This document shows, piece by piece, positions 43,384 to 48,813 of a DNA stretch of 64,000 nucleotides (position 1 is the first letter of the stretch; the number at the start of each line of letters is the position of its first letter). The position numbers were made by a program, and so were the translations under genes. A model generated the notes under the pieces. It was not told the origin of the DNA and did no database searches. It saw nothing but the letters and a program-made list of their open reading frames with translations. Origin of the DNA: Clostridia bacterium (GTDB taxonomy: Bacteria; Bacillota; Clostridia; Oscillospirales; CAG-272); the NCBI GenBank assembly GCA_017463405.1, contig JAFTPJ010000003.1, positions 56,103 to 120,102 of the forward strand, written 5' to 3'.

Positions 43384-43422
43384 GGCAATATCAGACCGAT
43401 TTAGGGGCGGGGCGATATTGTC
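43384..43422. terminator. Degenerate member 'd' of the GGCAATATCA hairpin family (start of direct-repeat copy 1)
   Basis: GGCAATATCAgaccgatttaggggcggggcGATATTGTC. It aligns base-for-base with member 'e' at 47613, with several substitutions. Confidence 0.5.
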
Positions 43423-43431
43423 TTTGTTCTT

Positions 43432-43612
43432 TCACTGCGCCATCATTGGCATATTGACCAGCATATTTTCGAGGAAGATGCCGTAGCCCGTGGTCGGGGC
43501 GTTGATCAGTACATGGTGTGACCATATTCCGCTTCGCTCTATGGTAAGCTTGTTTTACAAGCATTGCGCGCCGGCGAGTTTGCTGTTTTGAATGATGGGC
43601 GAGCCCGACAGA
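43432..43612 (-). pseudogene. Orphan, frameshifted copy of the 3' end of spoIVB (last ~45-55 codons)
   Basis: 43437..43498 is identical over 62 nt to 47667..47728, the spoIVB C-terminal codons ...[19 protein letters not shown]. The TGA is retained at 43434..43432. A 1-nt indel and a ~45-nt insertion (about 43524..43567) break the frame. Homology resumes at roughly 80% identity up to ~43612. Confidence 0.8.
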
Positions 43613-43619
43613 TGTGTGG

Positions 43620-44495
43620 TTAATAGAGGACAACAAATTTTGTGATGTTTTGAATCAATTTTCCTGCCTTTTCAAGATCTGCATTGTTGGGTAATTTTGG
43701 GGGCAACGTGTTTTGAATATCCAATGCACTATATTTGCCATCGGCGTAATCGTGATAGGATAAAAGCCGTATTTTTTTGATATTCCTGAAGGGGGATAAG
43801 AATTTTGCGATTTTTTCCATTTGATCATCGTTATATTCGGGAACGTACGGAATACGGATCTCGATATTAGACCCTATGTCGTCCAAAAATTTGAGATTTT
43901 CCAATATGATCTTGTTTGACTTTCCGGTGCATCGGATATGCGCGTCCTCGTCGTATGCCTTGAGGTCATATAGAAACGTATCGGCATAGGGCAAAATTCG
44001 CTCAAAGGACTTGCGTGGCGCAAAACCGCAGGTATCTATGGCAATATTAACACCGTGTTTCTTTAATTTCCTTGCGATTTCTATGCAAAGCTCGACCTGC
44101 AAAAGCGGTTCTCCACCGGAAAAGGTTACGCCGCCGCCCGAGCCCTTGAAAAACATTTCATCCCGTAGCAGTTCCGTAGCAATATCTCTCGCGGTTCTAT
44201 CCTCGCCGTATATCAGAAACGCATTCCTTGGGCAACAGTCGATGCATCTTCCGCAAAGCGTGCATGCTTCGCGGTCAAAAATATGTATACCGTCGGAAAG
44301 ATTGTTTGCGGAGCACAATTCCGTACATATTCCACAGTCTGTGCAAAGATTTTGAAAAAAGGCGATTTGCCGTTGCATACCGAATGATTCCGGATTATGA
44401 CACCATTTGCAACGGAGAGGGCAGCCCTTAAAAAACAGAGTAGTGCGTATTCCGTCTCCGTCATGCGTTTCAAAGCGTTTGATGGCAAATATCAT
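43620..44495 (-). CDS. Glycyl-radical-enzyme activating enzyme 2 (radical SAM)
   Basis: 291 aa. Motifs are GIRTTLFFKGCPLRCKWCHNPES, the clusters CTDCGICTELC...CTLCGRCIDCCP, and GGGVTFSGGE. The start overlaps the GRE2 stop (ATGA, 44492..44495). Confidence 0.9.
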   Translation of the reverse strand: MIFAIKRFETHDGDGIRTTLFFKGCPLRCKWCHNPESFGMQRQIAFFQNLCTDCGICTELCSANNLSDGIHIFDREACTLCGRCIDCCPRNAFLIYGEDRTARDIATELLRDEMFFKGSGGGVTFSGGEPLLQVELCIEIARKLKKHGVNIAIDTCGFAPRKSFERILPYADTFLYDLKAYDEDAHIRCTGKSNKIILENLKFLDDIGSNIEIRIPYVPEYNDDQMEKIAKFLSPFRNIKKIRLLSYHDYADGKYSALDIQNTLPPKLPNNADLEKAGKLIQNITKFVVLY

Positions 44496-46845: not shown

Positions 46846-47607
46846 ATGGAACGTGATCTTGTTATTGAAAAGGTGTGTTCGGTATTTGAGGGAGTGTTCA
46901 ATGTGGGATATATTCCGAGGGATAAGTCGCGGCACAGTGACGCGTTTGTTCTTTATACCAAGGGAGAGGCGGACTATATTTTTTCGGAGCAAGTGGCGAC
47001 CGTTAAGGTGGGAAATCTGCTTTATTTGCCGAAAAACAGCATGTATAATATTGATGTTAAGCAAAAAAGTAAGTTTATTTGTATTGATTTTTGTTTTTCC
47101 CCATCCGATGCGGAAATGCGTAGCTTCGTTTCCCAAAAGGTCGGTATAAATATCCAAGGTGATTTTGCCCGTGCCCTTCATAACTGGATGAAAAATGACA
47201 TCTCCCGTTTGCCGAAATTCTATGCGATCCTGTATGATATCTACGGAGCGATCCTTGATGCCGAAAACAATAAATATACCAATTCCGGCGGTATTTTTTC
47301 AAGAGCAATTGATATCATTTTGCAAAACTACAGTGACGCGGATTTTTCCGTCAATGATCTTTGCGAGCAGCTTGGGCTCTCTTCCGCGCACGTGCGAAGA
47401 ATTTTTATGGAAAATGCTCACGTTTCTCCCGTGAAATATCTCAATTACTTACGATGTGAGCAGGCAAAAAATCTGTTGCTCACCTCCAACCTTTCCATTA
47501 AGGAGATCTCGGAGTCCATCGGCTTTTCTGATCCGTTATACTTTAGCCGAGCATTCAAAAAAAGCGTCGGGATATCGCCCTTGGAATATAGAAAAAATAA
47601 TGCATAA
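46846..47607 (+). CDS. AraC-family transcriptional regulator, divergent from GRE cassette 2
   Basis: ORF track 46804..47607. I trimmed the start to ATG 46846 (MERDLVIEKV), which has a GAGAGGTGG RBS. The C-terminal HTH is ...SSAHVRRIFMENAHVSPVKYLNYLRCEQAKNLLLTSNLSIKEISESIGFSDPLYFSRAFKKSVGISPLEYR. Confidence 0.85.
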   Translation: MERDLVIEKVCSVFEGVFNVGYIPRDKSRHSDAFVLYTKGEADYIFSEQVATVKVGNLLYLPKNSMYNIDVKQKSKFICIDFCFSPSDAEMRSFVSQKVGINIQGDFARALHNWMKNDISRLPKFYAILYDIYGAILDAENNKYTNSGGIFSRAIDIILQNYSDADFSVNDLCEQLGLSSAHVRRIFMENAHVSPVKYLNYLRCEQAKNLLLTSNLSIKEISESIGFSDPLYFSRAFKKSVGISPLEYRKNNA

Positions 47608-47612
47608 GAAAA

Positions 47613-47652
47613 GGCAATATCAAACCGATTTTAAGGTCGGAATGATATTGCC
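47613..47652. terminator. Bidirectional terminator hairpin, member 'e' of the GGCAATATCA family (start of direct-repeat copy 2)
   Basis: aaaaGGCAATATCAaaCCGAttttaaggTCGGaaTGATATTGCCttt, located between the AraC (+) and spoIVB (-) ends. Confidence 0.65.
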
Positions 47653-47661
47653 TTTGTGCTT

Positions 47662-48813
47662 TCACCGCGCCATCATTGGCATATTGACCAGCATATTTTC
47701 GAGGAAGATGCCGTAGCCCGTGGTCGGGTCGTTGATGAGCACGTGGGTGACCGCGCCGACTAATTTGCCGTTTTGGATGATGGGGGAACCTGACATTCCC
47801 TGCACAATCCCGCCCGTAACGGCGAGCAGATCGGGGTCTGTTACGGTGACCGTATAGCATTTGGAGCCCTTGGCGTCGCGATTAATATTGGAAATTTTCA
47901 CGTCGTATTTTTCCGTTTTGTTGGAATCGAGTGTGCAGAGGATATAGGCGTCGCCCTCCTCAATCTCGTCGCGAAGTCCCACGGGCATCGGGTCGAGTGT
48001 GCACTCGGGAACCTCGGAAAACATTCCCCAGACGCCGCAGGTCGAGTTTCCGAGGAGTGCGCCGACCTTACCTGCATTGAAATAGCCCTTCAATTCTCCC
48101 GGAGCGCCCGACGCGCCCTTGACCACCGAGGAGATTGTTACGTCCGATACCGTGCCGCGCTTCATGGAGATCAGCGATCCAGTGTCGGCGTCGCAGATGC
48201 CGTGACCGAGTCCCGCGAAGGCACCCGTGTCGGGCAGGATAAAGGTGACGGTTCCGATCCCCGCGCCGCTGTCGCGTACCCAAATACCGGTTTTATAGCG
48301 GGCTTCTGCGTTACAGTAGACGGGGGTGAGCTGTGTTTCAAATTCGCGCTTGCCACGGCGGCAGAGCAGGGTCAGCTCCCGTCCTCCGCATGCTTCGATG
48401 CGGTCGGTCAGATCGTTGGCGCTTGTCAACGCGATACCGTCCACCTTCAGGATCATATCCTTTGGACGAAGCCCTGCGACGGTTGCGGGGTTGACGCTCC
48501 CATGCTCGGTTTCTACATCACAGAATCCAACCACCGTTACACCTTCGGTATAAAATTTAACGCCGAACGGCATTCCGCCCGGATAAACATTGAGATCCTG
48601 CAGAGACTCGGGAGCGAGCGTGGGAGATGTGATTGTCAGTGGCTGTGTGTTTGAAACGGTGGAGATGAGCGAGGTGGGGGCTGTGAATTGATTGCTCATG
48701 GCAAAAGCGATCTCCTTTTCGGGTGTTCCCGCCGAAATGGGTACCGCAAGCGAGTATGTGGTACAGACCATCAGCAGGAAGCAGCACAGGAGCTTCCAAA
48801 TTCGTTTTCTCAT
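47662..48813 (-). CDS. spoIVB: SpoIVB stage IV sporulation signalling serine peptidase (S55)
   Basis: 383 aa. It has an N-terminal signal/anchor, a PDZ-like segment, the catalytic His in [10 protein letters not shown] and the catalytic Ser in [20 protein letters not shown]. Confidence 0.85.
   Translation of the reverse strand: [383 protein letters not shown]

Follow-up and report, generated by a model that had tools for sequence, protein, structure and literature searches.

A glycyl-radical-enzyme cassette at the 3′ end of spoIVB in a Clostridia bacterium and its probable place in a family of site-specific serine-recombinase elements

The spoIVB locus and its repeated tail

In a 64,000-nucleotide (nt) stretch of contig JAFTPJ010000003.1 from a Clostridia bacterium (hereafter the window), the sporulation-protease gene spoIVB is followed by a block of metabolic genes bounded on either side by a copy of the gene's own 3′ end, or tail. 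This report concerns that block, its counterparts in other genomes (loci and contigs outside the window carry L numbers), and how such blocks may come to lie beside spoIVB. The window is part of a 127.8-kb contig from a short-read metagenome assembly (k141). From left to right it carries a first glycyl-radical enzyme (GRE1), an M20 peptidase, a PGA_cap protein, and activase 1 on the plus strand; copy 1 of the tail; activase 2 and a second glycyl-radical enzyme (GRE2) on the minus strand; an AraC-family regulator on the plus strand; copy 2 of the tail; and SpoIVB itself (Table 1).

SpoIVB is here an intact protein of 383 amino acids (aa) with a full Peptidase_S55 match, and it aligns to the solved B. 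subtilis SpoIVB (9lnf_A) with an E value of 1.2e-71. In this alignment, GMAGAP of the B. subtilis chain faces GMSGSP of the window; the catalytic residue is Ser378, and the codon that follows Met340 (47791–47793, TCA) encodes the equivalent serine. The part of the gene upstream of Met340, termed here the body, ends in the codons GGIVQG, and the orphan tail (43432–43611) stands at the far end of the block.

Table 1. Positions of the repeat copies, cassette genes, and neighbouring features in the window
Feature	Coordinates	Strand	Remarks
Activase 1	42494–43369	+	Outside the cassette, convergent with copy 1; Pfam gene check
H hairpin after copy 1	43382–43424		Between the orphan tail and convergent activase 1; z −2.1
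Copy 1, orphan spoIVB tail (codon-340 equivalent CTG to TGA)	43432–43611	−	Putative displaced native 3′ end, now a pseudogene
Identical core (= 47667–47728)	43437–43498		Probable gene-conversion tract
44-nt insert in copy 1, in-frame TAA	43523–43566	−	Small covarying stem and GAGCGAAGCG box
A motif TGTTGTCCTCTATTAACCACAC	43614–43635	−	Conserved cassette right end, putative element-side half-site; spacer AT at 43612–43613
Activase 2, GRE-activating radical-SAM enzyme	43620–44495	−	Cassette cargo; Pfam Radical_SAM 9.1e-20
GRE2, glycyl-radical enzyme	44492–46708	−	Cassette cargo; Pfam PFL-like 3.1e-87, Gly_radical 1.9e-20
AraC-family regulator	46804–47607	+	Cassette cargo; Pfam HTH_18 3.6e-22
H hairpin after copy 2, AAGGCAATATCA...TGATATTGCCTT	47611–47654		Between convergent spoIVB and AraC; fold −16.6 kcal/mol, z −5.5
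Copy 2, coding part (codons 341–383 and stop of intact spoIVB)	47662–47793	−	Putative cassette-borne replacement tail
Intact SpoIVB, Peptidase_S55 and PDZ	47662–48813	−	Continuous 383-codon open reading frame
Met340 codon	47794–47796	−	Putative insertion/crossover point, between A and TG or just 3′
spoIVB body, codons 1–339	47797–48813	−	Chromosomal part; Pfam Peptidase_S55 1.6e-78 and PDZ_6

A preliminary description of this DNA, made from the letters alone, had reported a diverged direct repeat at an offset of 4230 nt, and the comparison that it proposed bears this out. A repeat search of the window places the copies at 43381–43612 and 47610–47795 with a spacing of 4230, and BLASTN of 43300–43800 against 47530–48030 returns 129/144 identities (90%, E 4e-50), followed by 36/44 matches in the 5′ segment past the copy 1 insertion, against 35/43 in the earlier hand alignment. 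An exact 62-nt core (43437–43498 and 47667–47728), with mismatches flanking it on each side, and a TGA stop retained in both copies (43432–43434 and 47662–47664) lie where they had been described. Relative to copy 2, the insertion and indel of copy 1 resolve into a 44-nt insert (43523–43566) and a 1-nt indel; together these 45 nt keep the reading frame but include a TAA, the minus-strand translation across the insert including QCL*NKLTIERSGIW. Copy 1 is thus, as originally supposed, an orphan spoIVB 3′ pseudogene fragment. The earlier view that homology stops where activase 2 begins needs revision: the boundary falls at 43610/43611, and the 24 nt from 43612 to 43635 comprise a spacer and a separate conserved motif that overlaps the end of the activase 2 gene.

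Tails within one genome resemble one another elsewhere too. Both tails of L077 share a 63-nt identical 3′ block that includes that species' own codons, and those of L032 differ at five positions in the first 18 nt and at one in the next 114. Together with the 62-nt core of the window, these patterns fit within-genome homogenisation by gene conversion, and a later conversion between tails, as had been suggested at the outset, is a reasonable reading of the core.

The hairpin that follows each tail (H hairpin, AAGGCAATATC...GATATTGCCTT) is a dispersed palindrome, represented by at least six pairs in the window, with 13 half-site matches against 1.06 expected. Palindromes of about 45 nt lie at 20843–20885, 25730–25767, 26994–27030, and 30074–30111 as well as beside the two tails, with a lone half-site at 63866, and H-type palindromes also occur in several related genomes (L023, L054, and L077). 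The hairpins of copies 1 and 2 are 80% identical to each other, and that of copy 2 is 83% identical to the unrelated copy at 20843. The specific duplication is therefore limited to the spoIVB tail, the hairpin being no part of a duplicated target as first described but a member of what looks like a species-group-specific family of terminators or repetitive extragenic palindromic (REP)-like elements.

A short-read metagenome assembly (a k141 contig) might join two such copies wrongly, but the identical core of 62 nt is shorter than k = 141. Moreover, a contig from another sample and another assembler (L210) reproduces activase 1, the hairpin, copy 1, the motif, and the start of activase 2 at 99.96% identity, and contigs assembled at k = 31 (L207 and L209) end within the core, as a true repeat predicts. 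The repeat is therefore not an assembly artefact: independent assemblies answer the concern about mis-assembly raised beforehand, and recurrence of the same architecture in many species makes a mis-join the least credible of all the explanations weighed here.

Small inserts recur within orphan tails. The 44-nt insert is found at the same codon boundary, between A355 and V356, in the window, L077 (7458–7501), L006 (~11447–11490), and L196 (~2060–2100), and the orphan tail of L202 is truncated at this same point. The insert has a covarying 5–6 bp stem and a conserved GAGCGAAGCG box, which is the GCGAAGC mini-hairpin motif; on energy alone it folds no better than shuffled sequence. Another small repeat, ATACTCCTTTGCGGTGCAAGCG...CTCACTCGCTGACAAGCGAGCTTGCC (~140 nt in L172), occupies varying positions in about seven orphan tails (L172 ~3100–3240, L165, L193, L115, L093, L184, and L006 12575–12620). 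Both have AGCTTrCC and GCGAAGCG-like boxes; they may be related, and the ~140-nt repeat may be a non-autonomous element that accumulates in non-functional tails.

A precise junction and its neighbouring recombinases

A scan of species-representative genomes yielded 80 related spoIVB loci with up to 79% identity, mostly from uncultured gut Clostridia and Oscillospiraceae. Across these loci, the side of spoIVB that carries MarR and two ATP-binding cassette (ABC) transporter genes is conserved and the side beyond its 3′ end is variable, the latter holding AraC–GRE–activase sets in five species. Searching with the last 70 residues of SpoIVB revealed extra orphan tails downstream of the gene in L002, L005, L006, L007, L016, L032, L077, and L080, and nearly all matches begin at query residue 27, which is M340, the residue before the catalytic serine. 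At the nucleotide level, the order is aaaa(n)TGTTGTCCCTACTTGAcCACAC, 2 nt, and (G/C)TG TCN GGN. Orphan tails occur in at least 9 related species; among ~45 junctions, every orphan tail begins at the TG of the Met340 codon, and the preceding base is G or C rather than A in all except L133.

The conserved sequence ahead of the tail, termed the A motif, occurs once in the 64-kb window, where it differs from the consensus at several positions and encodes the last codons and stop of activase 2 (..KFVVLY*); the same fusion is seen in L077, L180, L202, and L159. At this right end of the block, the motif forms no hairpin. When metagenomes were scanned with it, ~35 further contigs carried the motif abutting a tail, the other matches being unrelated. 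In a logo built from 36 distinct junctions, conservation begins ~15 nt ahead of the motif and is absent from the cargo. The junction accordingly has a fixed dinucleotide at which motif switches to tail and a conserved element-side half-site of ~20–25 bp. In L164 (2169–2260), two A-like motifs stand in tandem, 54 nt apart, with no adjoining tail.

Such precision bears on whether homologous recombination by itself could have produced the arrangement, by Campbell-style entry of a tail-bearing circle or fragment or by segmental duplication, in one ancient event inherited by all. Tails of 130–190 bp are long enough for RecA, and their identical cores, like their resemblance within a genome, are evidence that homologous exchange takes place. 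It would nevertheless leave unexplained both the invariant single-dinucleotide breakpoint and the conserved non-coding motif of 22–25 nt at every orphan tail beside unrelated cargo, and the neutral DNA of one ancient event would be saturated at 65–79% SpoIVB identity. The physical linkage of the junction to recombinase genes in five lineages, described next, is likewise unaccounted for, and such an origin is judged improbable.

A BLASTN search with motif, tail, and left end matched a phage record, MT836038.1 (L211), that has an orphan tail and no spoIVB body. Immediately upstream of the motif lie three tandem large serine recombinases with Resolvase, Recombinase, zinc-ribbon, and DUF4368 domains, the Resolvase domain of the first not being detectable in MT836038.1, and after the tail come chromosomal cobalamin genes. 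A 31.8-kb IMG/VR contig (L215) has the same arrangement with all three recombinases complete. Further elements were sampled through homologues of the recombinase nearest the attachment (att) site, at 52–57% identity. In L231/233/234, L235/236, L237/238, and L239, a trio again precedes the motif, 'TC G', and the TG TCN GGN of a spoIVB tail; in L235/236, spo0A comes next after the tail. Five of the six recombinase lineages sampled thus link a trio to a motif-plus-tail junction, and on this linkage the A motif is read as the element-side half of an attachment site. In four of the five, 16–225 nt separate trio and motif; in the fifth, the distance is 6.4 kb and holds defence-like cargo.

That cargo, between trio and junction in L231 (8436–14336), consists of a 594-aa protein, a 1063-aa SMC_N/AAA ATPase, and a RelB/YafQ toxin–antitoxin pair, and L237 carries metabolic cargo (class II aldolase and Fe-ADH). 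In the exceptional lineage (L230, 14860–14914), the motif lies 3.2 kb beyond the trio, where the contig ends, and is followed by CTGGCTGGTGGTTCCGGGAAC with no spoIVB tail, a junction that possibly represents a secondary integration site. Those parts of the autonomous elements that were examined showed no conjugation module, and their left attachment site (attL) was not reached across the 31.8-kb IMG/VR contig. L038 and similar loci have nothing in common with the interiors of the autonomous elements.

Large-serine-recombinase genes combining Resolvase, Recombinase, and zinc-ribbon domains are present in L211, L215, L231, and L235–L239, and none is found in the 64-kb window. Neither Pfam nor six-frame signature motifs revealed a recombinase there, in keeping with the earlier statement that integrase and transposase genes are missing; since relatives with the same junction do have the genes, the window unit is at best a non-autonomous derivative.

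Other site-specific systems can be set against the same evidence. In integrons, cassettes form arrays flanked by recombination sites and are handled by a platform-encoded tyrosine recombinase acting on folded attC sites; the arrays of recombinase-less cassettes near spoIVB recall this arrangement, and a motif repeated at both cassette ends recalls the arm sites of tyrosine recombinases. No tyrosine recombinase lies in or near any array, however, save in L045, where two (~6600, plus strand, and ~7800, minus strand) stand 2–3 kb upstream of a distant spoIVB (62% identity) with no A motif and are probably unrelated to the spoIVB cassettes. The gene's upstream flank consists of MarR and ABC transporter genes, in place of an integron platform, and the motif does not fold. 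A transposon with terminal inverted repeats fares no better, the termini not being inverted repeats, and none of the sequences matched an Rfam family of structured RNA. A repeat of a gene's 3′ end next to a hairpin superficially recalls the variable and template repeats of diversity-generating retroelements; mismatches between the copies (G/A, C/T, G/C, T/C, and others) show no adenine bias, though, and there is no reverse transcriptase among the window genes. The proteins that actually adjoin the junction are serine recombinases, and any of these other systems is very improbable. Tn7-like ends and Xer/dif-like sites, considered together with terminal inverted repeats, were also set aside by reasoning as not fitting the sequences.

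Cassettes, their cargo, and a proposed mechanism

Units bounded by tails measure 0.7–5.3 kb and stand in tandem arrays of two or three in L005, L006, L007, and L180. Their cargo includes AraC regulators, EamA transporters, AAA_14/DUF4143 ATPases, GREs with activases, aldolases, sugar kinases, an aminotransferase, BspA-type leucine-rich-repeat proteins, and proteins of unknown function. There is no recombinase among the top 25 Pfam families listed for 66 cargo open reading frames, nor did six-frame motif searches, which covered the units and the DNA within 10 kb of spoIVB, find recombinase signatures. Between L007 and L032, the ATPase cargo shows 93% amino-acid and 84% nucleotide identity, compared with 66% and 70% for the spoIVB bodies; since the cargo is far more alike than the gene beside it, it has moved between species into the same site. 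Both elements are mosaics inside conserved ends.

The preliminary description had left open whether the GRE2/activase/AraC block or the GRE1 block was the newcomer. The GRE-type units of the window, L077, L005, and L180 are built alike: a tail and its H hairpin come first, then a convergent AraC and the GRE, and last an activase that ends in the motif. This common frame identifies the GRE2 block as the inserted one and excludes the GRE1 block, and it implies that copy 2 and its hairpin belong to the cassette. The GRE proteins of these cassettes are 34–58% identical in amino acids.

On the far side of copy 1, the stretch 35086–43369 holds an EamA transporter gene, two AraC genes, GRE1, the M20 peptidase, a PGA_cap (CapA-like) gene, and activase 1. 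In the cassettes, no cargo families are commoner than AraC and EamA, and a GRE1-type set (67–72% aa identity) lies directly after spoIVB in L012, in the opposite orientation. The stretch may be older cassette material with decayed junctions; no motif or tail remnant was found in it. Elsewhere in the window, a 2438-aa open reading frame occupies 9104–16420 on the plus strand.

At the left end of cassettes, many species have a common layout, in which a stop codon is followed by a hairpin that consists of two copies of the A motif and has a T-run; after ~40 nt comes a third copy, and then CTYTCCTTGRAYRATNCC. This layout is seen in L007 (11165–11285), L016 (11162–11280), L032 (11168–11290), L006, L005, L026, L029, and L038. 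The ~20 conserved nt of CTYTCCTTGRAYRATNCC resemble a decayed tail start or an inverted GGIVQG end of spoIVB (~14/17), and in L237 the motif recurs in inverted orientation, with the same flank, ~300 nt beyond the tail (~11870–11925). These left-end copies may be relics of other att junctions or accessory sites. A conserved small element protein was also considered for the left end and rejected, the small open reading frames being mostly unrelated to one another and none related to SpoIVB.

From this evidence, the 4.2-kb GRE2 block (~43612–47795) is read, with a probability of about 0.72, as a non-autonomous cassette of a family of site-specific serine-recombinase elements that target spoIVB. 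The insertion proposed in the preliminary description would thus stand, although not as a single event, being recurrent, family-wide, and site-specific. Members of the family would insert at the Met340 codon, one codon ahead of the catalytic serine, with the GGIVQG end of the body as the probable gene-side half of the attachment site. Autonomous members are larger than 31 kb and encode their tandem trio of large serine recombinases near this family's right-end motif. The right end of a cassette would be the A motif, as element half-site, and the left end a copy of spoIVB codons 340–383 with a terminator; integration would keep spoIVB intact, with mobile DNA encoding the catalytic serine and the native tail (copy 1) displaced to the far side.

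Strand exchange by large serine recombinases is conservative, takes place at a 2-bp overlap, and leaves the target unduplicated. Hence the second tail would have arrived as part of the cassette, to serve as a replacement 3′ end, and the duplication of a terminator-plus-tail target, by which the repeat was first explained, is unlikely, the junction being instead the probable att junction of a serine-recombinase family. As the replacement tail is like the native one, the gene-proximal junction would again resemble an empty target, which would explain the tandem arrays elsewhere; the distal junction would resemble the element's own site, so that cassettes lacking a recombinase could be moved in trans. 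The displaced tail would then have decayed through the stop-bearing 44-nt insert, and the tails would have been partly homogenised by gene conversion. The predicted junction of the excised circle joins the A motif to copy 2, ...TTAACCACACAT C/TG TCAGGTTCCCCCATC, and the chromosome after excision is predicted to read ...GGGATTGTGCAGGGAA/TGTCGGGCTCGCCC (slashes mark the joins). Precise excision would join the body to the stop-bearing copy 1 and leave a dead spoIVB, so that the cassette of the window is effectively locked in and probably fixed in place.

Tail types agree with an element origin of the attached tail. All uninterrupted relatives have short V(N/G)MPxxxR* tails with ordinary terminators after them, and the element-type palindrome stands after most tails of the long ...ARAS* type. 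L005 combines an attached tail of this long type with a displaced downstream tail of the short type found in its relatives; this, with the association of long tail and palindrome, lends support to an element origin of the attached tail. An empty locus (L021) and an occupied one (L032) are 82% identical across the spoIVB body. The two tails of the window are both native-like and have been partly homogenised.

The block might instead be the decayed remnant of a full recombinase-bearing element that integrated once in this lineage and lost its recombinases and most other genes by deletion, the GRE2 block never having moved alone. Autonomous elements do carry metabolic cargo that overlaps that of the cassettes (the class II aldolase and Fe-ADH of L237), the window motif is off consensus at several positions, copy 1 is dead, and the GRE cassettes are old, as the 34–58% identity of their GREs indicates. 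For this to hold more widely, independent deletions would all have to end in the narrow 16–225-nt gap between trio and motif, across 36 distinct cargo junctions, and both cassette ends are conserved around unrelated cargo, with one cargo gene far more alike between species than spoIVB. A remnant is accordingly unlikely, although it is the strongest of the rival explanations.

Several points weigh against a mobile, non-autonomous cassette. No recombinase is present in the window or the cassette, and none was located in this organism; nor was an empty site or a circular form found for this species, where the available contigs belong to the same strain or are too short. The attL of an autonomous element was never seen, and autonomous members may split spoIVB rather than restore it. 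The paired tails of L016, L032, L002, L077, and the window share species-specific features, so that an element-borne tail requires gene conversion or a closely related donor, and the most distal tail of L007, of the long type with an H hairpin, does not fit a rule that distal tails are native and short. The metagenome junctions were mostly found by means of the motif, leaving 10 junctions at loci from the Genome Taxonomy Database (GTDB), found through the tail, as an unbiased set. Finally, the three further motif copies at the conserved left end (the hairpin pair and the third copy) have no explained role, and the origin of cassettes with new cargo is left unexplained.

Comparison with known systems and significance

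In the way they work, the spoIVB cassettes resemble the staphylococcal cassette chromosome (SCC). SCCmec and the recombinase-less pseudo-SCC islands occupy the 3′ end of rlmH/orfX and are moved by the Ccr large serine recombinases. Shared features are large serine recombinases, insertion at a gene's 3′ end without inactivation, and diverse cargo cassettes in tandem, some of them without recombinases; these last can be moved in trans in SCC and may be so at spoIVB. SCC repeats, however, measure ~15–18 bp and cover the last few codons only, whereas the spoIVB replacement spans ~135 bp and 44 codons, including that of the catalytic serine; the recombinases come as a trio, in place of the single enzyme or pair of SCC, and host, target, and cargo are different. 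With another target gene and a repeat of ~135–190 bp, the spoIVB cassettes fall outside the SCC family.

Triplets of serine integrases are also known from streptococcal integrative and conjugative elements (ICEs), which disrupt mutT, traG, and hsdM and leave repeats of 2–8 bp (Ambroset et al. 2016, PMC4701971). Three tandem serine integrases at one end, in one orientation relative to the target, and insertion into a protein gene are common to both, and coding sequences sometimes lie between triplet and target, as in L231. The spoIVB cassettes do not belong with these ICEs, given the intact spoIVB and the long repeat. Firmicutes sporulation genes, too, harbour large-serine-recombinase elements: skin in sigK, SPbeta in spsM, and gin in gerE, the last a small non-prophage element, split their genes, which are rebuilt by developmentally timed excision (PMC5595907, PMC4191935). 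In the window, spoIVB is by contrast a continuous 383-codon reading frame, which places the cassette outside this group. Tycheposons resemble the cassettes in forming small cargo arrays with accessory metabolic genes, partial target copies at their flanks, and many members without a recombinase, but they mainly target tRNA genes.

Integrative elements commonly keep in attP a gene fragment from which the coding sequence of the target is restored, and tandem arrays can form at the site thus regenerated (Mageeney et al. 2020, PMC7192596). The spoIVB cassettes share with these elements a site in a conserved gene, a 3′ copy that keeps the gene intact, an orphan direct repeat, and arrays; they differ in that most lack an integrase, of which that study's pipeline required at least one per element. 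Its text and nine of its supplementary files do not mention spoIVB as a target, and a search of the literature, including a broader one, turned up nothing relevant on spoIVB as an integration site. The kind of element, one that restores its target and forms arrays, is therefore already known. What appears to be new lies in the specifics, namely the spoIVB target, the gene-preserving replacement of ~135 bp that includes the catalytic serine, and the mostly recombinase-less cassettes, which make up a widespread and apparently undescribed family in gut Clostridia.

Few routes of metabolic-gene exchange have been described in uncultured gut Oscillospiraceae and other Clostridia, and this locus points to a specific and widespread one. 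At the spoIVB hot spot, small recombinase-less cassettes are taken up that carry glycyl-radical enzymes, sugar catabolism, transporters, and defence-like ATPases, and they appear to be driven by large-serine-recombinase trios. A more ambitious idea, which is tentative and at present rather doubtful, is that gut Clostridia exchange cassettes through an integron-like or SCC-like system for which the spoIVB tail is the docking site. If so, every cassette would bring nearly a copy of the right half of the target, so that integration restores a usable site, and a trio acting in trans could insert and excise any cassette without a directionality factor. Species would in this way trade accessory metabolism such as glycyl-radical enzymes, sugar pathways, and transporters. 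Loss of function in the native tail, as through the 44-nt insert of the window, would make the host dependent on the cassette for a working sporulation protease, a form of addiction.

For serine recombinases more generally, the junction offers a testable site pair for a new family, in an enzyme class of interest to genome engineering, and ties that family to gene-preserving insertions, in contrast to the known triplets. The signature of motif and tail provides a means of finding cargo islands in metagenomes. For the hosts themselves, the proposed mechanism would mean that mobile DNA can supply the catalytic-serine codon of an important sporulation protease.

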